This document shows positions 12,949 through 61,155 of a stretch of DNA of 64,000 nucleotides, in pieces (position 1 is the stretch's first letter; the number at the start of each line of letters is the position of its first letter). Below the pieces are notes generated by a model. That model was not told where the DNA came from and searched no databases. It was given only the letters and a program-made list of their open reading frames with translations. The position numbers and the translations under genes are program-made. Source of the stretch: a virus; IMG/VR virus record IMGVR_UViG_3300036792_000218, positions 28,370 to 92,369 of that record. One strand, 5' to 3'.

Positions 12949-13039
12949 TAACGTACACCAGAATCCCCGCTAGTTGCCGCCTGTCACCGCTAGTCCGCGT
13001 TCGTGTCCCCGCGTGCCCCGCTGCGGTTACCTTGGATTC

Positions 13040-14527
13040 ATGAAGGGCAGCGTTTACCGGCAGTGCTTCTGCCGTGACCCTCAGACGAAGCGGCGCTACA
13101 GGCGCGGCAAGTGCCCCGACTGGGGCAAGCGCAGCCACGGCAGGTGGTACTTCAAGTACGACGCCCCGGCCGCTCCGGGCGAGAGCCGGCGGCGTCCCGA
13201 GACCGGCCCGTTCGGCACCAAGAAGGAAGCCGATGAAAAGCTGGCCAAGGCGCTCGCCGAGGCGGGGACGGGCGTCGCCCTGGCCGACCGCTCGCTGAAG
13301 GTCGGCCCCTACCTGCTCGCCTACCAGGCGGGCAAGCGGAACCTGAAGGACAGCACCCGCGCGACCGACGACGAGGCGTTCCGCCTGTACTGGATTCCCG
13401 CGCTCGGGTCACTGCGGCTGGCCGAGCTGCGGGACCACCACGTCGGCCAGGTCCTCACCGCCATGAGCCAGGTGAACCGGCCGCTGCCCGACGGCGGGGA
13501 GCCGTCGGAGATGCTTCGCCGCATGACCGCCGCGCGTGCCGACGACGAGCGGCGCGAGCTGCCCGCCGGCGAGAAGCGGCACAAGAAGTCCGCCAAACCG
13601 CTGTCGCCGGCGCGGGTCGAGCGGATGTTCGCCCCGTTCCGGGCCGCGATGAACGCCGCGGTGAGGACGAAGAAGATCGGGCTCAGCCCGTGCACCGGTG
13701 TCGAGCTCGAACGGGCGCGCAAGGAGCTGGCGCTGGCCTGGACGCCCGCCCGTGAGGCGAAGTTCCGCGCCCAGCTGGCGAAGCGGGTCACGGCGGCTGA
13801 GAAGGCCGCCCCGGCGGGCCGGGTGGTGACGACGGTCCAGCGGCAGGCGCTGTGGGCGGCGAGGGACCTGCGGCCCGGCAAGGTCATGGTGTGGCTGCCG
13901 GCGCACGCCGGCACCTTCCTCGACTACGTCGACGTCGCGCGGGAACGGCTCGCGGCGCTGTTCGCGGTGGCGTGCTACTGCGGTCTGCGCCGCGACGAGA
14001 TCACCGGCCTGAGGTGGGCTGAGGTCGACGTCGGCGAGGGCGTGATCTGGGTGCGGGAAACCGGGTCGGGCAGCGGGCCGAAGTCGAACGCGGGCACGCG
14101 GCCCGTCCCGATGGCGGCGGTCGTCAGGGACGCGCTGGCGGCGTGGGCCGAGGTGCAGGACCTCGAGCGGAGCGTCCGCGCGTCGGAGTGGCCTGATACC
14201 GACCTGGTGTTCACGCACGAGACGGGGCTGCCGCTGAGCGGCCAGTGGGTGAGTACCCGGTTCGAGGTGCTGGCGTACCGGTCGGGTATGCCGCCGGTGC
14301 GGTTCCATGACCTGCGGCACGGCACCGCGTCGATCTTGAAGGCGTCGGGGGCTGATTCGAAGATGATCGCCGCGGTGCTCGGGCACGCCCGGTCGGACTT
14401 CACTGACCGGGTGTACGTGACGCTGTTCCCCGAGGTCCAGGCGGCGGCTGCGGAGGCCGCCGCCGCGGTGGTGCCGCGCAAGAGCCGCATGCCGGGCGAA
14501 AGCACGCCGGGCGGGTCTGCGGTCTGA
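13040..14527 (+). CDS. int: Tyrosine integrase
   Basis: GLRRDEITGLRW (R), FHDLRH (HxxR), LGH, VYV (Tyr); N-terminal arm-binding region GSVYRQCFC..GRWYF..FGTKKEA. Confidence 0.95.
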   Translation: MKGSVYRQCFCRDPQTKRRYRRGKCPDWGKRSHGRWYFKYDAPAAPGESRRRPETGPFGTKKEADEKLAKALAEAGTGVALADRSLKVGPYLLAYQAGKRNLKDSTRATDDEAFRLYWIPALGSLRLAELRDHHVGQVLTAMSQVNRPLPDGGEPSEMLRRMTAARADDERRELPAGEKRHKKSAKPLSPARVERMFAPFRAAMNAAVRTKKIGLSPCTGVELERARKELALAWTPAREAKFRAQLAKRVTAAEKAAPAGRVVTTVQRQALWAARDLRPGKVMVWLPAHAGTFLDYVDVARERLAALFAVACYCGLRRDEITGLRWAEVDVGEGVIWVRETGSGSGPKSNAGTRPVPMAAVVRDALAAWAEVQDLERSVRASEWPDTDLVFTHETGLPLSGQWVSTRFEVLAYRSGMPPVRFHDLRHGTASILKASGADSKMIAAVLGHARSDFTDRVYVTLFPEVQAAAAEAAAAVVPRKSRMPGESTPGGSAV

Positions 14528-14657: not shown

Positions 14658-14716
14658 CACTGCTAATGCGGTTTGGGAGTGATCCCATCCGGGGTTCAAA
14701 TCCCCGATCCTCCGCC
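14658..14716 (+). other. attP core: 3' part of tRNA-Ser(GCT) (anticodon loop to acceptor strand), not a complete tRNA
   Basis: CACTGCTAATGCGG anticodon loop, long variable arm TGGGA-GTGA-TCCCA, T-arm CGGGG-TTCAAAT-CCCCG, ..TCCTCCG; no 5' half upstream. Confidence 0.85.
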
Positions 14717-46001: not shown

Positions 46002-46270
46002 GACGCGACCGCCCGGGCGCTGTCGACCAGGCCGCCGAGAGCCTGCGGCGTCGGCGCGGTCAGCAGCGTCACGATCCTGCCGTCCCACACCGACCAGAAC
46101 TCGCCGCGGCCCGGATCGAACCCGAACGTGTACCGGCCGCCGTACAGCAGCCGGAGACGGCTGAGTGCCTGCCTGGTGTCCCCGCCGGCCAGCGTCGCCA
46201 GCTCAGCCCAGTCAACGACGCCTGAAATGCCAGCAGCACGTGGCACCGCCTCTGCGTCCATTCCCGTCAC
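45998..46270 (-). CDS. Small hypothetical protein
   Basis: RBS GGGAG; first gene of an operon. Confidence 0.5.
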   Translation of the reverse strand: MTGMDAEAVPRAAGISGVVDWAELATLAGGDTRQALSRLRLLYGGRYTFGFDPGRGEFWSVWDGRIVTLLTAPTPQALGGLVDSARAVAS

Positions 46271-46329
46271 TCCCAGGTACGTAGTCCTCGGTCAGAGTGA
46301 CGCAAACGTAAAGCAGGAACTCGCCCGTA

Positions 46330-46347
46330 ACTTTCCTACAGGAAAGT
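46330..46347. promoter_or_regulatory. Perfect palindrome ACTTTCCT-AC-AGGAAAGT (operator candidate)
   Basis: Lies upstream of the 46270 operon, immediately after the XRE regulator gene. Confidence 0.55.
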
Positions 46348-46369
46348 CTCGGGGAATTGATCGAAAAAT

Positions 46370-47575
46370 TTAGATCAAGCCCATCCGCCAGGCCAGGCCG
46401 CGCAGGTCCCGGCCGCCGGCCTTTCTCCGCGCCTCGTCGAGCATGCTCCGCACCAGCTCCCGCAGCAGGGGACTGTTCAGCACCTGCGCCGGGGAAAGGT
46501 GCTCGGCCCGCTTCAGCGCCGCGGCGGCGCGCCCGTCTTTCCCCTGCATGGCGAACGCCCGCCCCTGCTCCATCAGCAGCGCGCCCCGCCGGTTGTTCGA
46601 CGCGAGCGCACGCGGCTCGACCTGGGACGCGTGCTCAAGCGCCCGCTCCGCGTTCCCGGCCTCAACCGACAGCGACGTGCGCCACACCCCGACGTTGCTC
46701 GCGCCGAACAGCTCCCACGCGTCGGGCTCGTCGCCGAGCGGTGCGGCGATCCTCGCGGCCTCCGCCCCGTGGTCATCGGCCCCCGCGTGGTCGCCGCTGA
46801 CCGCGCAGGCCAGCGCCGCGCTCAGCCTGAGCATCCCGTAGACCTCCATGGCCATGCGGGACTGCCCGGCCAGCGGCTCGAACCTGTCGGCCGCGTCCGG
46901 CATCGTCATCAGGGCACGGGGCTTGTTCGTCGAGCTCCGGGCGTGCGCCATGCCGTACGCGGCCGCCGCCTCCCAAACCGGGTCACCGAGCAGCGCCGCG
47001 GCCTGCCTGCCCCGCTCCGCGGCAACCCACGCCAGGTCCGGCTGTGCCGCGTACCGCAGCGTGATCACGGCGGTGGCGGTGGCGGGGACGAGCAGCCGTA
47101 GTGCTTCCTCCCGGTCGTGGCCGTTCGCCGTGCCCGCCTGCACCTCAAGCTCGCCGATCAGCGTGGGGAGGATCGGCAGGAGCGCGGCATAGTCCGACCA
47201 GCGCAGCGCCCGGTCCGCCTGGTCGTTCAGGTCCCGCAGAAAGGGGACCGGCCGCGCGGCGATGTCCGGCGGGTCGTCGGGGGACGCGTCGAGCAGCGCG
47301 GCGCGGAGCGGGTTCAGGGGCCACGCGTCGCGGCCGGCCTGCACTTCAGGGGCGGGCTCGCCGAGCAGCGTGTCCGCGCTGACGTCCAGCACCCCGGCCA
47401 GGGCGGCGATGTCGGCGCGCTTGTCAAGCGGTATGCGCCCGTTCTCGACCTTCGACAGCCAGCCTTCGGAATGCCCGACAAGGCCCGAGGCCTGCGCCAG
47501 CGTCAGGCCTTTCGCGCGGCGTGCCATCCTGACGGCCAGCCCTATGCTGACGCGATCCGTGCTAATCTCGTTCAT
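46370..47575 (-). CDS. XRE-family regulator with helical/TPR-like C-terminus (Streptomyces type)
   Basis: IGLAVRMARRAKGLTLAQ..GWLSKVENG; FGASNVGVW; AEHLSPAQV..P. Confidence 0.85.
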   Translation of the reverse strand: MNEISTDRVSIGLAVRMARRAKGLTLAQASGLVGHSEGWLSKVENGRIPLDKRADIAALAGVLDVSADTLLGEPAPEVQAGRDAWPLNPLRAALLDASPDDPPDIAARPVPFLRDLNDQADRALRWSDYAALLPILPTLIGELEVQAGTANGHDREEALRLLVPATATAVITLRYAAQPDLAWVAAERGRQAAALLGDPVWEAAAAYGMAHARSSTNKPRALMTMPDAADRFEPLAGQSRMAMEVYGMLRLSAALACAVSGDHAGADDHGAEAARIAAPLGDEPDAWELFGASNVGVWRTSLSVEAGNAERALEHASQVEPRALASNNRRGALLMEQGRAFAMQGKDGRAAAALKRAEHLSPAQVLNSPLLRELVRSMLDEARRKAGGRDLRGLAWRMGLI

Positions 47576-47668
47576 CGAAAGACCCCGACGTTTTGAGTGA
47601 AAGCTTCGCAACTCTCACGATAACCGCCGGGGTCTAGTCATGTGTAATTCGTGATGATCTCGTCACAC

Positions 47669-47708
47669 CGAAACGGCCCCGCCCCTGACCTGGGGCGGGG
47701 CCGTTTCG
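47669..47708 (-). terminator. Intrinsic terminator after the GntR gene
   Basis: CGAAACGGCCCCGCCCC-tgacct-GGGGCGGGGCCGTTTCG. Confidence 0.75.
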
Positions 47709-47732
47709 CGTTTCCAGGCCGGTCGGCCGTGG

Positions 47733-48221
47733 TCACGCCCCGCGTACCACGGCGGCGTCCACGGGCAGCCCGAGCGCCTTGCGGACCCGCAGCGCGACGG
47801 TAACCGCGCCGTCAAGGGTCCCCGACGTGACTGCCAGCAGGAGCGTGACCGCGCCGCCCTCGCCGTCCTCCACGGTCCCGCTCGGAACCGCCGGCTCGTC
47901 CCTCGTCGCCGCGGCCAGGCCGGCGTGCAGCGACGTGAGCGTGATGCCCTCAGGCGCGGGGTAGCTGGCGAACTCGACGCGCCACGCCCGCCGGGCAAGC
48001 ACGTACGTTCCCCGTTTAGGCACCAGGCGGACTAGTCCCTCGTCGGCCAGCAGCCGCACGCCTTCCTGAACGGTCCCGAGCGCGACCGACGCGTACGTGC
48101 GCCGGAATTCCTTCACCAGTTCCGTACCGGGCGGCAGCATGCCGTCTTCGTCGAAATCACCGGCGATCACCTTCCGCCGCAGCTCCCGCGCTATCAGTTC
48201 ATGCAGGGCGGGACCTGACAC
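47733..48221 (-). CDS. GntR-family regulator (KorA/TraR/KorSA-like)
   Basis: IARELRRKVIAG..LP....L...TVQEGVRLLADEGLV..PKRGTYV; divergent from the tra operon. Confidence 0.8.
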   Translation of the reverse strand: MSGPALHELIARELRRKVIAGDFDEDGMLPPGTELVKEFRRTYASVALGTVQEGVRLLADEGLVRLVPKRGTYVLARRAWRVEFASYPAPEGITLTSLHAGLAAATRDEPAVPSGTVEDGEGGAVTLLLAVTSGTLDGAVTVALRVRKALGLPVDAAVVRGA

Positions 48222-48333
48222 GCGGCTCTTTCCCCGTTTCGCTCGCACAGTGTTCCGCCAATCGTAGGGCCGCCTTCTCCGGATCAGAAGCACGGGTTGA
48301 CAACGCGCCGCGCCTATCCCAGTATGGTCTCAT

Positions 48334-48347
48334 ACCTGTTAACAGGT
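48334..48347. promoter_or_regulatory. Perfect 14-bp palindrome ACCTGTTAACAGGT (GntR operator candidate) in the tra promoter
   Basis: Downstream of TTGACA (48297) and TATGGT; between the GntR gene and the rightward operon. Confidence 0.65.
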
Positions 48348-48409
48348 CAGAGCAACCCGAACGAGGAACGGAGACCACCGGCCATGCGAGACAACCCGAG
48401 GCGGTCACG

Positions 48410-49042
48410 GTGACCGCCGTCGCCGCGCTGCGGCACTACGCCCGCACCAGGCGCGCCCTCACCGTCCTCGCCGAGGGGACGCAAGAGCACGCGTACGCCG
48501 TGAACGACCTCATCGACGCCTGGGAGGCAATCCCCGTGCAGCTGCTCTGGGTCGCCAGGCACGTCGACCGGCACACCTACCGGCAGACCGGGGCAGTCAT
48601 GTACGCCCCGGTCTACCGCACCCGCCTCGCCGGCATCCCCGCCGCGCTGCGCCGTTACGCAGCCGCCGAACGGGCACTGTGCGAGAACTCCATCACCGAG
48701 TACGCCGCAGGTACCGACGAGGAAACCCCCGAGTACCTGCACGCCAACAACGAGGCCGCCGCCGCTCACGCGTCCGTCCCGTGGTGCCTGCTCTGGCTTA
48801 CCGAGCTGATCAGCCGCCGCATCGTCCGCGAGCTCGACTACTTCAACCGGACCGGGCAGCCGCGCGAGGCCGGGTCCCCGGTCGCCTGCTGGCTCGGCTG
48901 GCTGCTGGTTACCGCCGCTGTCGCGGCAGGCGCCTGCCTCATCACGAGCGCCGTCACCCAGCCCGCAACCTGCACTGCCCCGTCCCCGGTGCCGTCCGTG
49001 TTCACCCCGGCGCCTGTCGCGGCCCCGCAGGTGACGCCGTGA
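48410..49042 (+). CDS. Membrane-anchored hypothetical protein (first gene of the tra operon)
   Basis: RBS GAGG; C-terminal TM. Confidence 0.55.
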   Translation: MTAVAALRHYARTRRALTVLAEGTQEHAYAVNDLIDAWEAIPVQLLWVARHVDRHTYRQTGAVMYAPVYRTRLAGIPAALRRYAAAERALCENSITEYAAGTDEETPEYLHANNEAAAAHASVPWCLLWLTELISRRIVRELDYFNRTGQPREAGSPVACWLGWLLVTAAVAAGACLITSAVTQPATCTAPSPVPSVFTPAPVAAPQVTP

Positions 49043-49329
49043 CCACGCTGACCCCTGCCGGCTGGCGCGCCCGCGCGGCCTGCCGCGGCAAGGACCCCGA
49101 GCAGTTCTTCGGCCCCGACGGCGAGACACCCGCACAGCAGGCAGTCCGCGAGGCGCAGGCCATCGTGATCTGCGCCCAGTGCCCCGTACGCGCCACCTGC
49201 CTGCAATGGGCCATGGACACCAACACGAAGCAAGGCGTCTGGGGCGGCACGGGCGAGGCCGAGCGCGCCCGCACCCGCCGCCAGAGGACCCGCCACGCCG
49301 CGAAGGCACGCCGGAGGGCAGCCGCATGA
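49039..49329 (+). CDS. whiB: WhiB-family Fe-S transcription factor
   Basis: WRARAAC..DPEQFF, ICAQCPVRATC, GVWGG. Confidence 0.95.
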   Translation: MTTLTPAGWRARAACRGKDPEQFFGPDGETPAQQAVREAQAIVICAQCPVRATCLQWAMDTNTKQGVWGGTGEAERARTRRQRTRHAAKARRRAAA

Positions 49330-49568
49330 TCGTCAAGGTCGCCGCCGTCGTCCTCCTGACCGCCCTCTGCATGGTCAGCGTTCACCTGCTCGCCGTCCTG
49401 CTGCTCGCCGTGGTGGCGCTCGCGGCCCTGCTGATCGTCCACCTGCTGATCGTCGCCGTCGTCACCGTCGGCACGGTCCTGCTGGCCCTGGCGTGGGCGA
49501 TCAGCCAGGCCGCGACCGAAACCGGCTGGCGGGTCGTCCCCTGCGTACTGAACGGGGCCACGGCATGA
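49326..49568 (+). CDS. Small hydrophobic membrane protein
   Basis: About 60 consecutive hydrophobic residues. Confidence 0.55.
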   Translation: MIVKVAAVVLLTALCMVSVHLLAVLLLAVVALAALLIVHLLIVAVVTVGTVLLALAWAISQAATETGWRVVPCVLNGATA

Positions 49569-50182
49569 GCACCGAACCGGAGTACATGAGCCGCACCGAC
49601 CGGGAACGCTGGCAGGCCGCCCGCACCTTGACCGACGTCGGCAACCTCATGGCCGACTGGATACAGGGCAAGATCACCACCCGGCCCGGCTACTACGGCC
49701 CCACCGACCTCGACCAGCCGGACACCCTCGTCCCGCTGCTCGCCAGCCTGTGCCGGGACGGGTTCGTCACGCACCAGTCGCAGGAAGGCTTTTCCGGGTG
49801 GGGCTACGACGGCGCGTGGTGGGTCCAGCACGCTTTCGTGGAGGCGTTCACCACCGAGGACGTCGTTGACCGCCTCTACGAGACCGCGTCGTCCCGCCTG
49901 ATCGTCATCAGCCACGACCCGGCCACACTGCCCGCCTGGCGCTACCGGCGAGACAGCGACTTCACCGCCACCTACCGCATAGGCCGCCCCTACACCGGCG
50001 CCGGCAGCTCACTGCCCCGCCGTCACATCCGCGACCCCCACATCGGGTTCGGGGCGTGCGGCAAGGAGGCCACCGACGCGCTGTGCTCCGCATGGCAGGT
50101 CACGGTCGCCGACCTCGCGCCAGGACCCGAGACGTTCCTGTGGGACTTCCTGTCCGGCCTCGACCTGGAGCCAGGCGAATGA
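49565..50182 (+). CDS. Conserved actinomycete hypothetical protein (DUF6919-like)
   Basis: LMADWIQG..RPGYYG, GFVTHQSQ.G, QHAFVEAF, WQVTVAD. Confidence 0.5.
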   Translation: MSTEPEYMSRTDRERWQAARTLTDVGNLMADWIQGKITTRPGYYGPTDLDQPDTLVPLLASLCRDGFVTHQSQEGFSGWGYDGAWWVQHAFVEAFTTEDVVDRLYETASSRLIVISHDPATLPAWRYRRDSDFTATYRIGRPYTGAGSSLPRRHIRDPHIGFGACGKEATDALCSAWQVTVADLAPGPETFLWDFLSGLDLEPGE

Positions 50183-52632
50183 GCGTGATCCCCGCGCCGC
50201 GCCGTGGCCGCCGGCCCCGTCCCGCCGGTGACGACGACACGCCGCCGCTGAGCGACGCGATCGAGCGACTGCTGCCCGGTGACCCCGAGCCCCCGGCCGA
50301 CCCGCCCGCAGAGCCCGCCGACGCCGAGCCCAGCCCCGGCACAGGGCAGGAGGAGCCAGCCGCGCCCGCCGCGGACGACGACGACCCGCCCGAGCCGAAA
50401 CCCGGCCGCCCCGGACTCGAAGAAGCGCAGCGCGCCGCGATCATCCCCGGTATCCCCGGCCAGCGCTGGCAGGCCGTCAAGGACAGCCTCGAACTCGCCG
50501 GCTACCGGACGGCGTTCCACGGCATACGCGCCGTGCCCGTGTACGCGCCCGGCTCGCTCGTCTACGCGGTCCGCGGCGGCGCCCGCCTCGGCCTCCGCTA
50601 CGCGCTGTGGATGGACGTCACGCACCTGCGGGTCGTCATCTCGCAGTCCCTGGCCCGCGGCGACGCCGGAAACGGCGACGTGCTCCGCGCCCACAACGAC
50701 AGGGAACGCACCAAGAAGGGAAACCGGAAACTCGCCGCCGGGACCGCCGCCACCGCCGCCCTCACGTCCTACGTGCTGGCGGAGGGAACCCCGCCGGCAG
50801 TCCAGATCGGCGCGGCCGCCGCCGCGTTCCTCACCCTGGTCGCGTTCGGGAAGCCGGACGGCAGCCCGTTCCTGCCGAGGGCGATCCTGCCCCCGAACTA
50901 CCAGCCCCCGAGCTTCGAGCTGATCCGCGAGGCGCTGGTAGCGATCATCCCGGCCATCAAGACGCACGTCGCCGCGAAGGGTGACCTTGACTGGGTCAGC
51001 GACGTGCACCGCGACGGCGACGGTTGGGCCGTCGAGCTCGACCTGCCCAAGGGCGTCACGGCTGAGCTGATCATTAAGAAGCGCAAGGAACTGTCCTCCG
51101 CGCTCCGCCGGCCACTCAGCGCCGTGTGGCCCGAGGGCGTGCCCGGCGAGCACGAGGGGCGCCTGTTCATCTGGATCGGCCGGCATGACTGGGCGAAAAA
51201 AAAGCTCGTCCCGCACCCGCTGCTCAAGGCCGGCACCCCCGACTTCTTCGACCTGGTCCCGTTCGGCACGATGCCACGCGGCAACGCGATCACCGTCCCG
51301 CTTTTCCAGACGAACTGGCTGTTCGGCGGGGCCATGGGCTCCGGCAAGACCAGCGCCATCCGGACCCTGCTCGCCGCCGCCGCGCTCGACACCGTCGTCG
51401 ACCTGTGGACCCACGAGTTCAGCGGCAAGGGCGACCTTGAGCCGTACGCCCAGGTCAGCTACCGCTACGTGTCCGGCCTGGATGACGAGGCGATCGCCTA
51501 CGCCGCCGAGTCCGTCAAGATGCTCAAGGCCGAGCTGCAGCGCCGCCAGGCGATATGGAAGAAGATCCCGCGCGAGAAGCGAACCGAAGCGCACCTGACC
51601 CGCGAGATCGCGATGGCCGACAAGCGGCTGCGGCCCATCGTCGCGTCGTTTGACGAGTGCCATAACGCGTTCCAGCACCCGACGTACGGCAAGCAGATCC
51701 AGACCGACCTTGAGTGGGTCATGCGGATCGGCCGGGCGTACGGCATCGTCGTCATCCTCGGCACCCAGCGGCCCGGCGCGGACTCGATCCCGGTCATCAT
51801 CACCGCCGTCACCGTGGCCCGCTGCTGCCTGAAGGTCAGCGACCACACGACCAACGACATGATCCTCGGCAGCGGCTCGTACAACAAGGGCCACGACGCC
51901 ACCGTGTTCCGCCTGCCGTACACGGACGCGGGCTGCTGCTGGCTCAAGGGCGTCGGCGACACGATCGCCCCGAAGATTTATTATCTCAACGATCCCGCGA
52001 CGCTGAAGATCGCGAACCGGGCCCGCGCGCTGCGGGAGAAGGCCGGGGTCCTGTCCGGGTACGCGCTCGGTGAGGAAGAGGACCAGGGCGAGCGGAACCT
52101 GCTCGGCGACGTCCACGCGGTGTTCGGGCCCGGTGAGCGGTTCCTGTACTGGCCGACGATCGCCGAGCGGCTCGCGGAGGGCTACCGGGGGACGTACACG
52201 GGCGTCACCGGTGACGGCGTGTCGGCCGACGTCCGCGAGCTCGCAGACATCGACTCCGACAACGGCCGGGAACCGGGCGGCAAGGTCCTCACCGGCCTGA
52301 AGCGCACCACGATCTCGCTCGCCGTCAACGGCGGCCCGGACGACCCCGACCAGGAAGCCGGCGACGACCCGCCCGCGCCCCCGCGGCCCGAGGCGGACAC
52401 CGAGCTGCTGACCGCCGCGGCGGAGATGGTCATCAGGGAGCAGTGGGCGTCAACGTCGACCCTCGGGCGCAAGCTCCGCCTCGGCCACGACCGCGCCGGC
52501 ACGCTCATGGACGAGCTCGCGGGCCACGGCGTCGTCGGCGAGCCGGGCGACGACCCGAAGGTGCGCGCCGTGCTGAAGACCGAAGACGACCTCGATGCCG
52601 TACTCGAGGCGATCAGGGGCGCGGACTCATGA
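50179..52632 (+). CDS. traB: TraB-like FtsK/SpoIIIE DNA translocase (actinomycete conjugation)
   Basis: N-terminal TMs; RDGDGWAVELDLP.G; Walker A GAMGSGKT; Walker B SFDECH; GRAYGI..ILGTQRP; MILG; TraB-type wHTH plus a terminal FtsK-gamma domain. Confidence 0.9.
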   Translation: MSVIPAPRRGRRPRPAGDDDTPPLSDAIERLLPGDPEPPADPPAEPADAEPSPGTGQEEPAAPAADDDDPPEPKPGRPGLEEAQRAAIIPGIPGQRWQAVKDSLELAGYRTAFHGIRAVPVYAPGSLVYAVRGGARLGLRYALWMDVTHLRVVISQSLARGDAGNGDVLRAHNDRERTKKGNRKLAAGTAATAALTSYVLAEGTPPAVQIGAAAAAFLTLVAFGKPDGSPFLPRAILPPNYQPPSFELIREALVAIIPAIKTHVAAKGDLDWVSDVHRDGDGWAVELDLPKGVTAELIIKKRKELSSALRRPLSAVWPEGVPGEHEGRLFIWIGRHDWAKKKLVPHPLLKAGTPDFFDLVPFGTMPRGNAITVPLFQTNWLFGGAMGSGKTSAIRTLLAAAALDTVVDLWTHEFSGKGDLEPYAQVSYRYVSGLDDEAIAYAAESVKMLKAELQRRQAIWKKIPREKRTEAHLTREIAMADKRLRPIVASFDECHNAFQHPTYGKQIQTDLEWVMRIGRAYGIVVILGTQRPGADSIPVIITAVTVARCCLKVSDHTTNDMILGSGSYNKGHDATVFRLPYTDAGCCWLKGVGDTIAPKIYYLNDPATLKIANRARALREKAGVLSGYALGEEEDQGERNLLGDVHAVFGPGERFLYWPTIAERLAEGYRGTYTGVTGDGVSADVRELADIDSDNGREPGGKVLTGLKRTTISLAVNGGPDDPDQEAGDDPPAPPRPEADTELLTAAAEMVIREQWASTSTLGRKLRLGHDRAGTLMDELAGHGVVGEPGDDPKVRAVLKTEDDLDAVLEAIRGADS

Positions 52633-52799
52633 TGTTGCGCACCCGCCGCGAGCCACGCAACAGCCCAACAACGTGTTGGGCTAGCACAACACGCGCTGAC
52701 CTGCGGAAACGTCAGATTGTCCGATTCAGCGCAACACGGCCGAGGGCCGCACAACACCAGCACAACACGCTGACCTGCGGAAACACGGTTCGCGCAACA
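52633..52799 (+). repeat. clt-like locus: cluster of 8-mers GC(A/G)CAACA directly downstream of traB
   Basis: Exact copies at 52684, 52729, 52749, 52760, 52792; variants at 52655 and 52663; inverted copies at 52633 and 52674; two GCTGACCTGCGGAAAC (52695, 52769). Confidence 0.7.
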
Positions 52800-52857
52800 A
52801 ACCGGCGGAACGGGCCCCCACGGGCCGCCCTAGGGACAACCACGATGGGACAGGGGC

Positions 52858-53433
52858 TTGAGCCGGATCACAGTCAGCGTCTGGCGCTGTGGCGGGTGCG
52901 GGAAGAAACGCGGGCTGCGCCACACCTGCCCGGGCGGCCGCGGCCGCAGGACACGCGACCGCATCGCGCTCGGCGTAGAGGTCCGCTGCCCGCACTGCCG
53001 CAAGCGGTCACTGAACCCGCTCACCCACACCTGCTCACCGAAGTCCGACTTCCGCAAGCGCCAGGCCGCCCACAAGCGCCGGGTCGCAGCCGAGAAACGC
53101 AAGCAGAAACGGAAGCTGTCCGCCGCACGGAAACGGGCCCGCGTCAAGGAACGCAGGCGCCTGGCAGCGGAGAAGCGCAAGCAGGCAGCGGCTGCGGCCG
53201 CAGCGAAGCGGAAGGCCGGGGCCCGCGCCCGGTCACACGACAAGACCCGGCACGACCCCGAGACCTGCACGGACCCCTACTGCACGAGCTTCCGCTGCCG
53301 CACCTACAAGGGCGGCAAGGAAGCCGGCAAGGCCGAGGGCCGCGCCGAGGGCTATGCGGCGGGCTACGCCGAGGGCTACGACAAGGGCTTCGCCGACGGG
53401 TTCGCCGCCGGGCAGGCCTCCGCGGCCAAGTTA
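52858..53433 (+). CDS. Basic Zn-finger protein; no in-frame stop at the apparent end (TTA 53431-53433), formal ORF runs to 54237
   Basis: CGGC..HTC and CPHC..HTC, Lys/Arg coil, G..EG..EGY repeats; the next gene's RBS follows the TTA. Confidence 0.55.
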
Positions 53434-53443
53434 GGAGATCCCA

Positions 53444-53785
53444 GTGAGCGTGATCATCACGATCCTGATCACCGTCCTGATCGCGGTGCCCGCGCACGTG
53501 GCGCTGTTCCTGCTGACGCACCGGCTCATCGCCGCCGCGCTCGCGGTGCCCGCGTACGTGGTGCTGTGCCTGGCGCACCCGGTCCACAAGTGCCCCCGCT
53601 GCCGCGGGGCCAGGGTGGTCAAGAAGGGCAACAGTCACCCCATGTGCCGCTGGTGCAAGGGCCAGGGCAAAACCAAGCGGCTCGGCGGCCACCTGGTCCA
53701 CCGCGTGTTCTGGGACCACGTCGGCCCCTGGATCAGGGACAAGTACCTGGATGCCGCTCACCGGCTGCGGGACGGCCAGTCATGA
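53444..53785 (+). CDS. Membrane protein with DnaJ-type Zn finger
   Basis: Two TMs, CPRCRG..CRWCKG.G; typical of AICE/plasmid transfer regions. Confidence 0.65.
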   Translation: MSVIITILITVLIAVPAHVALFLLTHRLIAAALAVPAYVVLCLAHPVHKCPRCRGARVVKKGNSHPMCRWCKGQGKTKRLGGHLVHRVFWDHVGPWIRDKYLDAAHRLRDGQS

Positions 53786-54237
53786 GCGGCGGCAAGTTCG
53801 AGGGCGTCGTCTCGGGCACCTGGTCGACCACGAGCAGCGGGTGGTGGGTAAAGGCCGTGGCCGCCGTCGCCGTCGTGGGCGCGCTGGACGGGTACCTGTG
53901 GACCCTCCTGCGGTTCCTCGCCGTGCTGCTCACCGTGGTCCTCGTCCTGTTCACCGCGCTGGCGGTACCCGCGGCCGTCTGGATGCGCCGGTGGACCAGC
54001 CGCCAGCACCAGCAGTTCAACCGGCAGCTCGCCGCGCTCCCCGACGAGCCGCGCCAGGCCGTCAAGGCAGCCGCGCCGCCCGTGATCCAGAACTTCTACG
54101 GCGGAACCAACGTGTTCATGCTGCCCGGATCACAGCTCCCGGCCGGAATCAGCGAGAACAGCCAGGTCATCCGGGCTTACCCGCTCCGCGACGCCGTCAC
54201 CGACACCACGGAGGGAGGTCCACGCCATGAGAACTGA
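53782..54237 (+). CDS. Membrane protein (Spd-like)
   Basis: Two TMs; ATGA overlap. Confidence 0.55.
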   Translation: MSGGKFEGVVSGTWSTTSSGWWVKAVAAVAVVGALDGYLWTLLRFLAVLLTVVLVLFTALAVPAAVWMRRWTSRQHQQFNRQLAALPDEPRQAVKAAAPPVIQNFYGGTNVFMLPGSQLPAGISENSQVIRAYPLRDAVTDTTEGGPRHEN

Positions 54238-54337
54238 CGACTGCGGCGCCTGCGGAGGATCGGGCACCGAACCGAACCCGTACTTCCCGCAGAAGACACG
54301 CCCGTGCGGCACCTGCCACGGCAGCGGCTGCAAGTAG
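54227..54337 (+). CDS. 36-aa DnaJ-type Zn-knuckle microprotein (not in ORF track)
   Basis: MRTDDCGACGGSGTEPNPYFPQKTRPCGTCHGSGCK; RBS GGAGG. Confidence 0.65.
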   Translation: MRTDDCGACGGSGTEPNPYFPQKTRPCGTCHGSGCK

Positions 54338-54340
54338 GAA

Positions 54341-54745
54341 CTGACGGCCCCGAGGGCGGCCAGCGCACGCACTGGCCGCCCGACCGGGCAATCAGCACCA
54401 GGGGCAAGCCCGGCCCCACCGAACAGGAGGAAACGAGAAATGGGATTTTTCAAACGCAGCGCGCCGGAACCGGCCCCCACCGAGACGCGCGGCCAGCGCG
54501 AGCAGCGCGACGCCCGCGAGGCGATCGTCAAGGACCTGACCAAGAACATCCATGACCGCAACCGCGCGGCACAGGTCCGGGCCCTGCCCGGCGGCGAGGA
54601 GATGGTCGCCGAAGCGGTCAGGCGCTCGGCCAACTGGTGTTCCTGACGGCCCCGAGGGCGGCCAGCACCACACCGGGACTGGCCGCCTGACCGGGCAATC
54701 AGCACAGGGGCACGCCCGGCCCCAGCCAACAGGAGGAACCACATG
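54341..54745 (+). repeat. Two ~100-bp intergenic direct repeats (54341-54442, 54643-54745) with hairpin and RBS
   Basis: CTGACGGCCCCGAGGGCGGCCAG..CTGGCCGCC.GACCGGGCAATCAGCA..AGGGGCA.GCCCGGCCCCA..AACAGGAGGAA..ATG. Confidence 0.85.
54440..54646 (+). CDS. Small hypothetical protein
   Basis: RBS AGGAGG; lies between the repeats. Confidence 0.6.
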   Translation: MGFFKRSAPEPAPTETRGQREQRDAREAIVKDLTKNIHDRNRAAQVRALPGGEEMVAEAVRRSANWCS

Positions 54746-55057
54746 GCACTACCACCGATGACACCCGAGCAGCGCGCCGACGCCCGGCTGAAGGCCGCCG
54801 CTACGCGCGGGGAACGCGCCGAGGTCAGGCGGCGCCTCAAGCGCGGGGAACTGACCCTGGCCCAGGTCCTCGCCGACGCCGCCACCAGCGACGTCATCGG
54901 CAAGATGAAGGCCTCCGCGCTGCTGGAAGCGCTCCCCGGTATCGGGAAGGTCCGCGCGCGGCAGCTCATGGGCCAGATCGGCATCGCGGAGAACCGTCGC
55001 GTCCGCGGCCTGGGCGCCGGCCAGCGCAACGCGCTCGAGGCCGCGGTCACCGCCTGA
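54743..55057 (+). CDS. mihF: Actinobacterial integration host factor (mIHF/sIHF) homolog
   Basis: MALPP.TPEQR...KAA..R..RAEV...LK.G..VIGKMK.SALLE.LPG.GKVRA..M..IGIAE.RRVRGLG..Q. Confidence 0.92.
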   Translation: MALPPMTPEQRADARLKAAATRGERAEVRRRLKRGELTLAQVLADAATSDVIGKMKASALLEALPGIGKVRARQLMGQIGIAENRRVRGLGAGQRNALEAAVTA

Positions 55058-55133
55058 CGGCACCAGTTGGCCGCCCGGCACTTCCCCGCCGGGCGGCCAG
55101 GACCCCGCACGACACCCCATGAAAGGAACGGCG

Positions 55134-56327
55134 TTGACCGACACCGAAGCCGTACCGCGCCGCTCGTACCGCGACGAGCGCCGCGAGGACCAGCGCGTCG
55201 CGGCGCAGATCAGGCGCGACGACCAGGCGGCACGCGCGCAGGCTGCCCGCGATGACGCTGTCGCACGGGTGAAGACCCGCGCCGCCGCGAACAAGGCCCG
55301 GCAGGACCGGCGTTCCGCAGCGCGCAAGGCCCGTGCCGCCGCCGTCGCCGCCGCATGGTCGTGGGTGGCCCGGCACCTGATGGACCTGATGTTCGTACCG
55401 GTCATCACCGTCCCCGGCGCGCTCGCATGGGAAGCGATGGCCGCCTACGGTCACTCGCTCTGGGGGCCGCTCGGCGTCATCCTGCCCGCCTTCAGCGAGG
55501 GTGCCATGTGGGCATTCGACATCGCCGTCGAAGTCCGCCGCCACCGTGAGCCCGACAAGCCTGTCCGGCTCCTGCTGGCCGGCATGGCCGTCTTCGCCGC
55601 GTACGGGGCCGTCCTGAACTTCCTCCACGGCATGGCACGCACAACGGCGCACCACGGGATCACCACCGCGATAGCGATGGCGCTCGTGAGCGTCGCCGGG
55701 GTGACCGCCCGACAGATGATCACGGCACGGAGAATGACCCGCATCGAGCGGCGTACTGCCCGCAAGATCCGCAAGGCCCAGAGGGACGCGGTCGACAGGG
55801 CGACAGTCGACCTCCACGCACCCGGCGGGCCCCGGCTCGTGATGACCGCCGAACCGTCACCGGAGCCAGTCGCGGAGCCGTCAGAACCGGCCGTCCCCGA
55901 GCCGTCAGATGACGGCCCCCGACCCGTCACGGTGTCCGTCACCAAGAGCGCTTTCGGAACCCTCGCGCTGACCTTCACCCCGGCCGTCAAAATCCCGTCG
56001 GTCGATCCGTCACCGGAACCCGTCAAACCGCAGGCCACGCCACCCGTCGAGCCGTCACCGGAGGCACCCGGAACAGACCAGGGAACGACGCCCCCGGACC
56101 CGTCACGCAGGCCTCGCCGGCGACCCGGCCCGCAGGGGGCAGGCACGCCGCGCGGGAGGCATTCCAAGCTCGACGCCCTGATCGGCAAGGGCGGCCTGCC
56201 CAACAAGGAGATCGCCAAGCAGGCGCGCGTCTCCGTGTCCACCGTCGAACGCCGGCGCCGGGAACTGCGCGAGGCGGCAGAAGCGGCAACCAAGGTGACG
56301 GTGCTCGACGAGCGCCGCCACGCGTAA
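55134..56327 (+). CDS. Spd-like (SpdA/SpdB2, DUF2637-like) multi-TM protein with Pro-rich linker and C-terminal HTH
   Basis: N-terminal coil, about 4 TMs with LP..SEG..W and LNFLHG; NKEIAKQARVSVSTVERRRR. Confidence 0.65.
   Translation: MTDTEAVPRRSYRDERREDQRVAAQIRRDDQAARAQAARDDAVARVKTRAAANKARQDRRSAARKARAAAVAAAWSWVARHLMDLMFVPVITVPGALAWEAMAAYGHSLWGPLGVILPAFSEGAMWAFDIAVEVRRHREPDKPVRLLLAGMAVFAAYGAVLNFLHGMARTTAHHGITTAIAMALVSVAGVTARQMITARRMTRIERRTARKIRKAQRDAVDRATVDLHAPGGPRLVMTAEPSPEPVAEPSEPAVPEPSDDGPRPVTVSVTKSAFGTLALTFTPAVKIPSVDPSPEPVKPQATPPVEPSPEAPGTDQGTTPPDPSRRPRRRPGPQGAGTPRGRHSKLDALIGKGGLPNKEIAKQARVSVSTVERRRRELREAAEAATKVTVLDERRHA
55854..56105 (+). repeat. Intragenic array of CCGTCA hexamers
   Basis: 10 exact copies plus 1 inverted in about 250 bp, falling in two different reading frames. 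Confidence 0.75.
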
Positions 56328-56376
56328 CCAGGCCACAACCACGACACCCGAGAAAACCAGGAAGAGGGAACAACAC

Positions 56377-56898
56377 ATGGCAAACGAAGCGCAGCAGGCC
56401 GGCGCAGCCCTCGCGGCAGCGCAGCTGGCCAGGGTACGCAAGGTACTCACCGTGCTCGACACGGAAACCGGAAGCCGCCAGTACGCGCTCGAGGACATCG
56501 CGCGCATCGTCGGGGAACCGGACGACACGCCGGGCACCGCGGACGGCCAGCTAACCGACTACGAGCAGGAGTACGCCGGCTTCTGGCGCCGGCTCGTCGA
56601 GAACCCGGACGGCACGCTCAACGCCGACCAGGTGAAGCGCGAGCTCCACGACTACAGCATGCTTATCCGCCAGGTACCCGAGGCGTACGACGGGGTCACT
56701 AACGGCCGGATCAGCAAGCCGAACACGATGCCGGGCCCCGTCATCGACGCGGTAGAGGAACGCATCAGCGACGCCGAAGACGACGCGATCAACGACCTGA
56801 TCACGAACCTGGAGGCGTACCCCGACCAGGCGTTTACCTCGATCGCCGAGGTCGTCGCCGTGATCCGCGGGATAACGGGAGTGACCGGTGGCAACTGA
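56377..56898 (+). CDS. Hypothetical phage protein
   Basis: FW..LVEN.DGTLN.DQVKRELHDY...V..AY..VT.GRISKPNT. Confidence 0.65.
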   Translation: MANEAQQAGAALAAAQLARVRKVLTVLDTETGSRQYALEDIARIVGEPDDTPGTADGQLTDYEQEYAGFWRRLVENPDGTLNADQVKRELHDYSMLIRQVPEAYDGVTNGRISKPNTMPGPVIDAVEERISDAEDDAINDLITNLEAYPDQAFTSIAEVVAVIRGITGVTGGN

Positions 56899-57373
56899 CC
56901 AGGGCCCGCACGGTCCGTTCAACACCGAGGCGCAGGTCCTCGCGCTGCCCGACGTCGAGGCCGTGTACGAGGCGGCGCACGAGTCGAACCGTCACGGGGT
57001 GCTCCGCGAGGGCTCCGAGGCGATCCTGCTGGCCGCGTGCGCCGACACGGGCGCCGACCCCGGTGAGTACGGGGCCAGGATGATCCGCTGGCTGGCAGAC
57101 TTCGGCCCGCAGGCCTGCCAGGTGTTCGCGGACCTGATCCGCCAGGCCGCGCACGGCAAGCCGGGACCGCACAGCGTCACGTTCGACCTGGCCGACGGTA
57201 ACAACACGCCGTTCGTGCTGACCGAGGCGCTCCAGTTGTTCGCGGACACGCAACGGCTCTTCGCCCACAAGAAGGACAGCAACAGCGCGTCGTGCAACGT
57301 GTGGGCGGAGCGCGCCGACGAGATGCGCGCCCAGGCCGTCGAAGTCATGCGAGAGGACCACCCGTCAACCTGA
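56888..57373 (+). CDS. Hypothetical protein
   Basis: GPF.TE; G.Y..R.I.WLA pattern; coupled. Confidence 0.55.
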   Translation: MATDQGPHGPFNTEAQVLALPDVEAVYEAAHESNRHGVLREGSEAILLAACADTGADPGEYGARMIRWLADFGPQACQVFADLIRQAAHGKPGPHSVTFDLADGNNTPFVLTEALQLFADTQRLFAHKKDSNSASCNVWAERADEMRAQAVEVMREDHPST

Positions 57374-57402
57374 CACATGGAACGCCTGACACCCGCCACC
57401 GC

Positions 57403-57442
57403 CGAAGGGCCGGCATCCCGAGAGGGGGACGCCGGCCTTTCG
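57403..57442 (+). terminator. Intrinsic terminator ending the tra operon
   Basis: CGAAGGGCCGGCATCCC-gaga-GGGGGACGCCGGCCTTTCG. Confidence 0.7.
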
Positions 57443-57482
57443 CATGTTTGCGCTGCTAGTCGCGCCGGGTGATCATCGAGGC

Positions 57483-58334
57483 ATGACGGGGGCAAACAAC
57501 TTCAGCGGGGACTGGGACGACACGGGGAGCGGCGGCCAGGGGTGCGCGAGGGGACGCCACTGCGCGGAGGCGGATTACCAGGGCAATGCTGCGCGGGGGC
57601 CGCGGGCGTTCTGCGAGACGGACCGGGCGCACGTCGGCAGCGTGATCCGCGACCTGCCGCAGGTGTACGTCGAGCTCCATTACAAGCTCGCCAAGGGACA
57701 GCAGCCCGACGGGCAACGGGTCAGCGGCGGCGGGAAGGAGGCACCGACCCCGCTCGACCTGGATATCGAGGCGTTCCTGCGGCACGTCATCCTGGTCGCG
57801 GTGTCGTGGGAGGAAGCGGTCCGGGTGGCGGCCCGGCTCTCACCGCTGCCCGACGGGCTGGTCCGCGACGGGACCGCGCTGCAGCGGGCCTGTGTGCTGC
57901 TGGCCGGCCGTGACCGTGACCGCTGCGGCCACCTGGACGTCCTGCTCGCGCTCGCCCCGGAGACGGTGAACCGCCCCGTAACGGGGTCGACGCGGCTGGC
58001 GGACCTTGAACCGGGCACGCTGATCCGGGTCGACTCGTCGGGGGACGCCTGGCAGAAACGCGACATGGACGGGACCGCTGCGGCCCTGGAGTTCCTGACG
58101 CTGAGCAGCCGGGCCCGCGCGGTCCTCGGGCTGAACCTCCAGTCGCGGCGCGTCGCCGTCCGCTGCGACGGGTGCGAGTCGATCGGGACGCTCAAGCAGC
58201 GGGAAGCGCTCGGAGGCGGCTGGGAGGCGGTCGTCCGCTGCTCGGCGTGCCCGCAGGTGTACATCGGGCAGCCGTTCGAGCTGCTGATGGGCCGGGAGTA
58301 CGCCGAGACGGTGAAGGCCGGGCACGCGCCCTAG
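57483..58334 (+). CDS. Conserved actinophage Zn-binding protein
   Basis: CARG.HC, FCE.D, DLP..Y..L, P.PLDL, CDGC..CSAC. Confidence 0.6.
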   Translation: MTGANNFSGDWDDTGSGGQGCARGRHCAEADYQGNAARGPRAFCETDRAHVGSVIRDLPQVYVELHYKLAKGQQPDGQRVSGGGKEAPTPLDLDIEAFLRHVILVAVSWEEAVRVAARLSPLPDGLVRDGTALQRACVLLAGRDRDRCGHLDVLLALAPETVNRPVTGSTRLADLEPGTLIRVDSSGDAWQKRDMDGTAAALEFLTLSSRARAVLGLNLQSRRVAVRCDGCESIGTLKQREALGGGWEAVVRCSACPQVYIGQPFELLMGREYAETVKAGHAP

Positions 58335-58354
58335 CGCGCCCGGCCCCCGGTCGG

Positions 58355-59647
58355 TTATGCCGCCTTGGCGGTCACCACCGTGGCCCGCGTGATGACGGTC
58401 TGCTTCGTGCCCTGCCACTCGTCGTGGCCCTTGATCGTGGCCTTGATGCGGAACGACTTCTCGGCCTCGTGCCCCAGCGCCGCGTTCGAGCTGAACCACT
58501 TGAGCACGTGCCCGTCCGCGGTGATCAGCGTGTAAATCGTGGTCGTCTTGGGCGTGTACCCGAAGTAGCTCTCGCTGTAGGCGATCGACTTGACCCGGAC
58601 GTCGACCTCGATCTTGTCTTTCGCCTGCCCGATGTGCTCGTTCGTGATCGAGTCCTGCTCGGCCTGGCGGCGGAGGTCCGCGCCGACGGCCCGCGCCCAC
58701 GCGGCCGGCGCGGAGCACAGGAGCCCGAAGTGCTTGGGGGTGACCCGCTCGGCGCGCAGGACGGTCTTGAGGTTGATCTCGTACTCGGACCCGGCCGGCC
58801 ACCGCTCGTCGTCGAGCAGGTAGTCGCGGATCAGGACCGCCTGGCCCGGTGCCTCCTCGGCGGTGCGGCGGGTGATCTTCACGCCGTGCGCCTGCTTGAC
58901 CTCGGCGAGCTTCGCCGTGCCCCGCTCGTGGTCGTACTGCTTCTGCAGCGCGGACCTGCTCGCCGGCCTCAGCGCCTGCTCGACAACGTGCTTGGTCGGG
59001 GTCCGGCAAAGCGCGCCGCCGTCTGACGGGACGTAACCGCCCTGCATCTGGATGACGGCCCACGCGCACCGCAGCACCGTCAGCGGGTCATACGCCGGCA
59101 TCCCGCCGCCGCCCCACCCGAACCCGCCCTCGTCGTCGTCGAGCAGGTCCGCGCCGTCGTCCATCCACCGGAACCGCACGTCGTGGCCGAGGAAGTCCTT
59201 CAGGCAGGTTGACCCGACCTGGATCCTCGTGCCGTCCTCGCCCTCGACGAGGTATGTGCGGGTGCGGTGCCGGGCGGTCTTGCAGTGGTCGCAGCCGCCG
59301 GGCTTGAGCGCCGTCCGGTCGATCGTGCCCTCGAAGCCGGGGGCGCAGCGGGTGACCAGCGTCGGCTCGCCGGTGGCGCTCAGGTCCCAGTCCCAGTCAA
59401 GCGCGGCGAGGAACGTCCACCCGGCGTAGCAGGCGGGCTGGCCGGTGACCGTGGTCTCCCACAGGTCGGCGTCGGCGGTGAGCCCGCCCGCGGTTTCCCA
59501 GGTGCGGCGGACCCGCGTGTAAGTGACCTCGTAGCGGCCGGTCCAGCCTTGCCGTGCGGCGCGGGCGTTGACCTTGTCGGTCTTGGCGAGCAGGTCGGCT
59601 AGCTCGGCGTCGTTCAGGTCCGCTGTCCGCGTCCTGGTGGTCTCCAT
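58355..59647 (-). CDS. Conserved phage protein with Zn site and C-terminal OB-fold-like domain
   Basis: CDHC..R.R..TYLV..QVGSTCLKDFLG; HIG..KDK..W.SS..IKATIKGH.EW.G.KQTVITR. Confidence 0.7.
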   Translation of the reverse strand: METTRTRTADLNDAELADLLAKTDKVNARAARQGWTGRYEVTYTRVRRTWETAGGLTADADLWETTVTGQPACYAGWTFLAALDWDWDLSATGEPTLVTRCAPGFEGTIDRTALKPGGCDHCKTARHRTRTYLVEGEDGTRIQVGSTCLKDFLGHDVRFRWMDDGADLLDDDEGGFGWGGGGMPAYDPLTVLRCAWAVIQMQGGYVPSDGGALCRTPTKHVVEQALRPASRSALQKQYDHERGTAKLAEVKQAHGVKITRRTAEEAPGQAVLIRDYLLDDERWPAGSEYEINLKTVLRAERVTPKHFGLLCSAPAAWARAVGADLRRQAEQDSITNEHIGQAKDKIEVDVRVKSIAYSESYFGYTPKTTTIYTLITADGHVLKWFSSNAALGHEAEKSFRIKATIKGHDEWQGTKQTVITRATVVTAKAA

Positions 59648-59786: not shown

Positions 59787-59801
59787 CCGCCGGCTGCTCG
59801 A

Positions 59802-60778: not shown

Positions 60779-60793
60779 TCAGGCCGTCCCCGC

Positions 60794-60970: not shown

Positions 60971-60991
60971 TTCGGTGTCCCCCTCCGTAGC

Positions 60992-61059: not shown

Positions 61060-61155
61060 GACCCGCGCAGTCAATCCACCAGAACCACCCGGCCCCGTTG
61101 TCATAATGACCACGTCGGGACCCGTGTATCCCGCGCAAGGCAAAACGGGGGTGAC

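Follow-up and report, generated by a model that had tools for sequence, protein, structure and literature searches.

Gene flow by bacteriophages and gene flow by conjugative elements are usually regarded as two distinct routes. The described systems closest to the one reported here come from actinomycetes. The Streptomyces plasmid pSVH1 has a tra-spd locus comprising TraR, SpdB3, Spd79, SpdB2, Orf108, TraB, and clt, and both clt and the TraB recognition sequences consist of a short word that is repeated beside traB and that itself drifts (PMC4447253). Integrative and conjugative elements of actinomycetes (AICEs) are defined by Int, Rep, and Tra genes flanked by att sites (Ghinet et al. 2011, PMC3218068). 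According to PMC3583192 and PMC4487206, the Streptomyces element pZL12 (phage ZL12; GQ919031; Zhong et al. 2010, J Bacteriol 192:3747) is a plasmid-phage with both virions and a tra locus, and its conjugal transfer is reported to need tra and two adjacent genes. Finally, the actinophages phiC31 and VWB carry SpdB2 homologues, which were suggested to help spread phage DNA (Thoma et al. 2015, PMC4447253). Here, we analyzed a stretch of 64,000 nucleotides (the window, from whose first base all positions are counted) that forms the final part, bases 28370-92369, of the single 92,369-bp virus record IMGVR_UViG_3300036792_000218. At 47.7-57.4 kb, it holds a rightward operon with a GntR gene divergent at its left end (the module), and this one genome carries the sequence of both a phage and a conjugative machine.

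An original prediction, made by a model from the letters alone, had read the element as a tailed temperate phage with an apparently complete conjugation module, a phage-AICE hybrid. The gene set that it had claimed (GntR, WhiB, TraB, an 8-mer array, mIHF, and a protein with transmembrane [TM] helices and a helix-turn-helix [HTH]) is in place by Pfam, motif, and profile evidence. We think it probable that the record is the complete genome of an authentic temperate siphovirus that integrates in Streptosporangiales-type actinomycetes, whose non-structural arm includes a native, Streptomyces-type double-stranded DNA (dsDNA) transfer module and which would have two routes of spread. The parts, their order, and their conservation are read from the sequence, and each functional step is drawn by analogy with pSVH1. 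The earlier interpretation of dual spread is thus supported, with transfer itself being something that we infer from that analogy.

The carrier genome

A 127-bp exact direct terminal repeat, found by comparing the two ends, closes the record; IMG/VR places it in the direct terminal repeat (DTR) class, and CheckV puts its completeness at 100%. GC content is even across the record and the window, at 0.69-0.74. The original prediction left open whether head genes would be present elsewhere on the contig, and the large terminase subunit (TerL), the portal, the major head protein (MCP), and a 1,202-aa tape measure protein (TMP) are encoded in the 28 kb to the left of the window. Phage genes in the window encode a GH25 endolysin, a ParB-like protein, a single-strand annealing protein (SSAP), and an exonuclease, together with a tyrosine integrase next to an attP core (Table 1). 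The attP core is 100% identical in genome G388, in which the match lies inside a tRNA-Ser(gct) gene, and similar matches occur in 394 of the 401 Streptosporangiales genomes, a tally that takes in one unpublished genome (G011); the host is therefore likely to belong to this order. Because the terminal repeat, head genes, endolysin, integrase, and tRNA-Ser attP occur together, we assign the element as a complete, integrating, tailed temperate phage (Caudoviricetes) of a Streptosporangiales-type host. A megablast of the window at 45-60 kb against 50,697 phage records gave no match. Beside the integrase region, at 9606-12876, are genes for a GT2 glycosyltransferase and a GH26 hydrolase, both families being identified by Pfam.

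The TraB motor and its relatives

The central gene of the module encodes a TraB-type FtsK/SpoIIIE-like protein in which the Walker A (GGAMGSGKT), Walker B (FDEC), and GTQRP motifs are intact and every column invariant among 23 homologues is present. At its C terminus (residues 740-799) is an FtsK-gamma winged HTH (wHTH) domain (PF09397), scoring 51.5 bits against a cut-off of 30.6. A tblastn search with this protein of a plasmid collection matched 34 actinomycete plasmids, including pSVH1 (32% identity over the motor, 4e-26). Among the 50,697 phage records, the sole match was to a 345-aa protein from a Gordonia phage and was confined to its gamma domain. The closest homologues, P0002 and P0003, are 77-78% identical. 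The second-closest, P0003 (78% identity, 1108 aa), has Hint/intein domains (PF07591, PF14890) and appears to be an intein-interrupted TraB.

Among the candidates scored, 251 TraB homologues reached E<=1e-10. A scan of viral contigs with the single protein found none, and an alignment-based scan found TraB in nine. Four contigs with terminal repeats, G002 (135 kb), G003 (106 kb), G004 (69 kb), and G005 (55 kb), carry TraB along with a terminase gene, an HK97 capsid gene, or both, and further viral contigs have tail genes within a few kilobases of TraB. TerL and TraB also lie on one contig, 25-27 kb apart, in two sampled Streptosporangiales genomes (G169 and G130); no TerL was found in the five AICE-bearing genomes searched. 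The association of TraB with head genes, which the original prediction had proposed to look for in other phages, thus recurs in further viral contigs. In one of them, the 69-kb DTR contig G004 (L010, L049-L052), TraB and an HK97 capsid gene are accompanied by a DUF3631 (RepAM-like) gene; G004 would represent a hybrid of phage and AICE in which a replication gene of the AICE type has also been retained.

Phylogeny bore out the expected affinity with plasmid and AICE proteins. In a quick maximum-likelihood tree (IQ-TREE, midpoint-rooted), in which pZL12, pSVH1, L066, L067, and L070 sit on long branches and from which fragments or sequences with stops (L015, L018, L028, L029, L031-L034) are left out, this TraB and those of four viral contigs form one clade (SH-aLRT 100) whose sister is an AICE group. 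The nearest non-phage TraBs sit in classical AICEs. Other phage-borne TraBs fall elsewhere in the tree, so that at least three switches of carrier are needed. Taken with the plasmid matches, the tree places this TraB with plasmid and AICE TraB and not with FtsK-like phage proteins.

The clt-like array

Directly after the traB stop is a non-coding array of GC(A/G)CAACA words (Table 1). Six of the eight copies of GCRCAACA in the window fall inside it, where ~0.01 would be expected, a ~500-fold enrichment. In the 260 bp 3' of the traB stop, 10 of 16 loci, phage-borne and AICE, have 3-7 motifs of the type CGCNACA (0.1-0.3 expected); other loci have 4-6 copies of a different 8-mer at this place, such as CCGCTACC, GCCGTAAC, or CCTAGACC. 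The position of the array is kept across relatives that are ~50% identical. This pattern matches the description of clt, and we regard the array as a candidate TraB docking site.

A native part of the phage genome

The module is flanked by phage genes, with SSAP and exonuclease genes to the left and phrog_1568 and phrog_2319 to the right. As had been predicted, one leftward promoter motif occurs on both sides of it: a 19-nt core is found seven times (at 20.9, 24.0, 27.2, 59.7, 60.7, 61.0, and 63.3 kb), with zero copies expected. In G003, the 106-kb DTR contig, 21 genes are held in common and the module is at the same place, ahead of the terminase; the left-flank XRE gene (69% identical), GntR, WhiB, TraB, ZnB, mIHF, SpdB2, and a right-flank gene follow in the same order.

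An independent AICE or plasmid that has inserted into, or rides on, a phage genome would also bring together such parts, and GntR, TraB, clt, and Spd are the transfer half of an AICE; moreover, the sister clade of this TraB is AICE-borne. The phage-borne TraBs nevertheless form a clade of their own, and the position of the module and its left XRE neighbor are the same in G003. A repeat search of the window found no att-like direct repeats bracketing the module, and no integrase adjoins it. The claim that no second integrase or att site flanks the module therefore stands for its immediate surroundings, but the small serine resolvase gene some distance to the left (Table 1) had been missed. A Prim-Pol or DUF3631 replication protein (PF09250, PF12307) was not found in the 92-kb record, in searches of which one had controls that were silent too and which did not cover RepSA; tblastn with the DUF3631 protein of locus L017 does detect homologues in G002 and G004. 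We consider an inserted AICE very unlikely.

A metagenomic assembly chimera of a phage and a conjugative element is a natural concern for a record from a soil metagenome. A contig of 57,641 nt from a different assembler covers 44000-61999 with zero differences at ~103x and spans both module edges (47.7 and 57.4 kb), although run X1, from which it comes, is probably the record's own source and hence not an independent sample. A soil metagenome from a second study contains ~90%-identical fragments from traB, the membrane genes, and both flanks, one of which (458 nt) bridges the right edge, at 57113-57565. Given also the GC content, uniform at 0.70-0.74, and the same combination of genes in other DTR contigs and in the replicon of a cultured isolate (see below), a chimera is hardly credible. 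Run X1 also shows apparent joints across which parts of the module are skipped; all have sides of 20-22 letters and low depth, and we take them for stray matches and not for deletion variants. From the phage flanks without bracketing repeats, the continuity of assembly, and the shared place in G003, we judge the module to be native to the phage, neither an inserted AICE nor a chimera.

Gene content and control region

Gene calls in the module were placed by third-position GC content (GC3 frame plot) and translation, and GC3 is 0.85-0.95 in every module gene. The features are listed in Table 1. The bounds that had been claimed for the operon, a GntR operator and a terminator, were both recovered, as a promoter-like site with a palindrome and as hairpins at both ends.

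Table 1. Features of the transfer module and of the integration region (window coordinates)
Feature	Coordinates	Strand or place	Evidence
Tyrosine integrase of the phage, outside the module	12974..14527	+	PF00589, E 1.8e-23
attP core, 59 bp, equal to the 3' part of a tRNA-Ser(GCU) gene	14658..14716	+; just past the integrase gene	Genome comparison
Small serine resolvase	15150-15767	~32 kb from the module	
Perfect hairpin, 16-bp stem; likely terminator and left module edge	47671..47707	Between XRE gene and GntR stop	Sequence read
GntR-family regulator, candidate TraR/Kor repressor	47733..48293	-	PF00392, 31.5 bits, above cut-off
Promoter-like TTGACA-17-TATGGT, then perfect palindrome ACCTGTTAACAGGT (14 bp, 48334-48347); candidate operator	48297..48347	+	Sequence read
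210-aa protein, one TM helix, first operon gene	48410..49042	+	GC3 frame plot, hydropathy
WhiB-like transcription factor	49039..49329	+	PF02467, E 2.2e-22
80-aa very hydrophobic membrane protein	49326..49568	+	Translation; hydropathy 3.17
DUF6919 protein; stop overlaps traB start	49565..50182	+	PF21897, E 4.7e-27
TraB-type FtsK/SpoIIIE-like dsDNA translocase, 817 aa	50179..52632	+	Motifs, Pfam, tblastn
clt-like array, non-coding, 167 bp: five direct and one inverted GC(A/G)CAACA, 9+9 palindrome, two 20-nt repeats	52633..52799	Directly after traB stop	
ZnA, zinc-ribbon and basic coiled protein	52858..53436	+	Translation, DNA
ZnB, membrane zinc-ribbon protein: 2-3 TM helices and CxxC...CxxC	53444..53785	+	GC3 0.95, hydropathy
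152-aa protein, two TM helices, Spd-like by position only	53779..54237	+	Frame plot, hydropathy
Two ~62-nt leader copies (54371-54432, 54678-54738), 91-96% alike	54371..54738	+	Direct repeats D7, D15, D16
68-aa protein gene	54440-54646	+; after first leader copy	
mIHF/sIHF-type nucleoid protein	54743..55057	+	PF22525, E 5.4e-28
SpdB2 homologue, 402 aa: basic N terminus, membrane core, C-terminal HTH	55119..56327	+	Hidden Markov model (HMM); HTH_24 at 351-385
Two acidic orphan proteins, 173 and 161 aa; variable cargo at operon end	56377..57373	+	Translation
Hairpin, then TTTC; likely terminator and right module edge	57401..57438	+	Sequence read

The divergent regulator has the features of a TraR/Kor repressor: it is a predicted GntR-type wHTH protein beside the tra operon, and a promoter palindrome lies in the divergent gap. 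This palindrome is the sole perfect copy in the window, and GntR homologues adjoin TraB in three of the relatives' loci (L007, L009, L012). Near the integrase and attP, just upstream of the serine resolvase gene, a copy with two mismatches, ACTTGTTAACAGGC, is found at 15825-15838; this copy could reflect a link between recombination and the regulator of transfer, or it could have arisen by chance. WhiB is encoded upstream of TraB in eight other loci (L005-L007, L014, L016, L017, L020, L021). The first operon gene had no Pfam match; the two acidic proteins at the end of the operon had neither a Pfam family nor a homologue in the relatives' loci.

The Spd-like protein with TM helices and an HTH that had been predicted near the end of the operon is a homologue of SpdB2. 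An HMM built from 91 homologues of the 402-aa protein matches SpdB2 of pSVH1 over the membrane core (62.7 bits, E 5.5e-20), and the alignment shares the motifs EG..WA and NF.HGL. Residues E127, W131, N167, H170, and G171 of the core are invariant. The Pfam DUF2637 model does not match the protein itself and reaches 2 of 25 of its homologues. Comparison with the DUF2637 protein of L017 (BLASTP, HMM) gave only low-complexity matches, and the identity was settled by the SpdB2 profile comparison.

The order TraB-ZnA-ZnB is kept in ~25 loci. Of the membrane Zn-finger genes that had been claimed, both encode zinc ribbons, but TM helices are predicted by hydropathy in the second, ZnB, only. An mIHF gene also follows ZnB in the relatives carried by phages (L005-L007); none was found in the AICE loci. 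Each of the two leaders, whose sequence ends in AACAGGAGGAA, closes with a ribosome-binding site, one before the 68-aa gene and one before mIHF; the duplicated leader could act as a promoter inside the operon or as an RNA element with a regulatory role.

Proposed function

By analogy with pSVH1, the module would act as follows. In the lysogen, GntR bound to its palindrome would keep the operon, and with it the toxic TraB, turned off. After derepression and excision from tRNA-Ser by the tyrosine integrase, hexamers of TraB would dock on the GC(A/G)CAACA words through the C-terminal wHTH and pump the circular phage genome, as dsDNA, into a neighboring hypha. SpdB2, ZnA/ZnB, and the small membrane proteins would then relay the genome through septal cross-walls. 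Two routes of spread would thereby be open to the phage, as virions and by capsid-free mating or spreading.

Several points weigh against this proposal. The Pfam FtsK_SpoIIIE model (PF01580) scores TraB at 20 bits, under the cut-off of 24, and membrane anchoring of TraB is weakly predicted, with Kyte-Doolittle peaks at residues 206-224 (1.69) and, weaker, 248-266 (1.35); the description of this protein as a TraB-type FtsK with TM helices is thus borne out for the motor and the gamma wHTH, and the helices are weak predictions. ZnA is without a stop codon, having an in-frame TTA at 53431-53433 and a frame that stays open until 54237, so that expression may be unusual in some of the operon. TraB is lacking in the closest head-gene relatives, pAmyja1 (MCP 58%, TerL ~51-52%) and the source of a TerL homologue on G366:C2 (50%); the module is therefore dispensable for the virion cycle and part of a variable non-structural arm. 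Phages could also employ the pump for another purpose.

One such purpose, and the chief rival to transfer between mycelia, is spread or maintenance of the phage within a single mycelium, its DNA being moved or segregated through septa and into neighboring compartments and spores, whether in the course of infection or in the prophage state. Thoma et al. proposed a role of this kind, helping to spread phage DNA, for actinophage SpdB2 homologues (PMC4447253), and in the present module Spd-type genes outnumber TraB, mIHF is specific to the phage-borne versions, and the phage encodes a ParB-like protein. However, intermycelial transfer of pSVH1 requires TraB together with clt, and Spd alone suffices to define spreading (PMC4447253); furthermore, the AICEs in which the nearest non-phage TraBs sit do mate. 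We regard a role confined to one mycelium as the less likely reading, though one to be taken seriously.

It is more doubtful still that the cassette is kept for a use other than transfer, such as excluding incoming plasmids, AICEs, or phages, or that it is a decaying remnant. The missing stop codon of ZnA, the two operon-end genes without relatives, and the close head-gene relatives without the module would fit such an explanation. On the other hand, all invariant TraB residues are intact, the position of the array is conserved in relatives at ~50% identity, the TTA ending is itself conserved in G003, and GC3 is high in all genes, all of which points to selection rather than decay. On balance, we favor transfer between hyphae in addition to virions.

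The ending of ZnA deserves separate description. The TTA directly precedes the ribosome-binding site and GTG start of ZnB; G003 (L007:13138) has a TTA at the homologous spot, and five other relatives end in TGA. In both TTA cases, there is a TAG in the +1 frame. An in-frame TTA occurs just four times in 119 other called genes, once near the apparent end of a methyltransferase-like gene (43531-43533). Through this conserved TTA, which stands where ZnA would have its stop, the module may be coupled to the availability of a bldA-type tRNA and hence to the developmental state of the host. A tRNA scan of the 64-kb window, which did not take in the first 28 kb of the record, found no tRNA gene, and thus no bldA-like tRNA is carried in the window.

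The head-gene relative pAmyja1 (NZ_CP008954.1, L076-L081) is deposited as a 92.5-kb "plasmid" of Amycolatopsis japonica. It shares the whole head and tail module with the phage described here (portal 57%) and has neither TraB nor any of the non-structural arm; pAmyja1 is probably an unrecognized phage-plasmid.

Implications

It is possible, and we advance the idea tentatively, that integrating tailed phages of mycelial actinomycetes make up a widespread, unrecognized dual-mode class that uses capsids as well as TraB/clt/SpdB2 transfer of naked dsDNA between hyphae, and that has repeatedly exchanged the module with AICEs, as the three or more carrier switches in the TraB tree suggest. AICEs may have arisen from such phages by loss of the capsid; alternatively, the phages may descend from AICEs that acquired virions.

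If the module works, the lysogenic state could pass along a mycelium and reach phage-resistant neighbors with neither lysis nor receptors. TraB is known to mobilize chromosomal DNA, and a phage with a working module could thus drive the transfer of chromosomes in actinomycetes that produce antibiotics. Such genomes would be misfiled by tools that assign elements to either "phage" or "integrative and conjugative element". The existence of a comparable replicon, pPaSha2, in a cultured Pseudonocardia opens the question to bench work.

Comparison with known systems

The hybrid idea is supported but is less new than the original prediction assumed. By the published accounts cited above, pZL12 already established that virions and an FtsK-like tra can reside on one actinomycete element, and SpdB2 homologues of actinophages were noted in 2015. 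A full-text literature search found no paper describing TraB in integrating prophages.

Like the phage described here, pZL12, a 90-kb circular element, and its relative pSLE1 combine virion genes with an FtsK/SpoIIIE-type tra, adjacent membrane genes, and a nearby GntR gene. The backbone of pZL12 is unrelated, with 1 of 119 proteins in common, and its Tra aligns with this TraB at only 27% over 159 aa. pZL12 persists as a ParAB-bearing plasmid, and in this phage an integrase and a tRNA-Ser attP point instead to integration; of plasmid maintenance functions, only the ParB-like protein was seen, ParA not having been looked for. The likely hosts also differ, the order Streptosporangiales here and Streptomyces for pZL12. 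Unlike pZL12, this phage combines SpdB2 and an 8-mer array with a TraB that has a gamma wHTH and is of the pSVH1/AICE kind. In comparison with phiC31 and VWB, which are described as having SpdB2 only, it has SpdB2 together with TraB, a clt-like array, and GntR.

pSVH1 shares with this phage a GntR regulator, TraB, 8-bp direct repeats beside traB, SpdB2, and several small membrane proteins. SpdB2 is downstream of TraB here and upstream in pSVH1, and the 8-mer here is GC(A/G)CAACA. Beyond the pSVH1 set, the phage has WhiB, DUF6919, mIHF, and two genes for zinc-ribbon proteins. The module is carried here by a 92-kb phage instead of a plasmid, and no rolling-circle Rep was identified.

Chromosomal loci of Spirillospora sp. 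NBC_00431 and Actinomadura gamaensis and an 18-kb plasmid of Streptomyces sp. NBC_00562 are textbook AICEs with DUF2637-TraB-ZnA-ZnB and Prim-Pol, and the Spirillospora AICE additionally has DUF3631. With these, the phage shares the WhiB...TraB-ZnA-ZnB core, a TraB identity of 42-47%, an array after traB, and a tyrosine integrase, and with AICEs in general it shares integration into a tRNA gene. The AICEs have the DUF2637 gene upstream of TraB, a Prim-Pol or RepAM gene, and no virion genes; in contrast, this phage has a virion set and mIHF and no match to a Prim-Pol or DUF3631 Rep. Of the features that define an AICE, it has a Tra with an FtsK/SpoIIIE domain and a tyrosine recombinase with a tRNA-type att site.

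A counterpart in culture is pPaSha2 (CP052773.1) of Pseudonocardia alni strain Shahu, a circular replicon of 41.9 kb that was deposited as a plasmid and is labeled non-mobilizable in PLSDB; our literature search found no paper describing it as a phage or as conjugative. Like this phage, it combines head genes with TraB: it encodes a terminase, a portal, an HK97 protease, a major capsid protein, a holin, Bet, and an integrase, along with DUF2637 and TraB. Its TraB is 36% identical (profile E 3.7e-158). pPaSha2 is smaller, has other head genes, and carries a TraB from a different branch of the tree.

On these comparisons, we do not class the element as a plasmid-phage of the pZL12 type, given its unrelated backbone, its remote Tra, and its predicted integration, nor as an AICE, since it lacks a match to an AICE-type Rep (Prim-Pol/DUF3631) and has virion genes; its gene content is that of a hybrid of phage and AICE.

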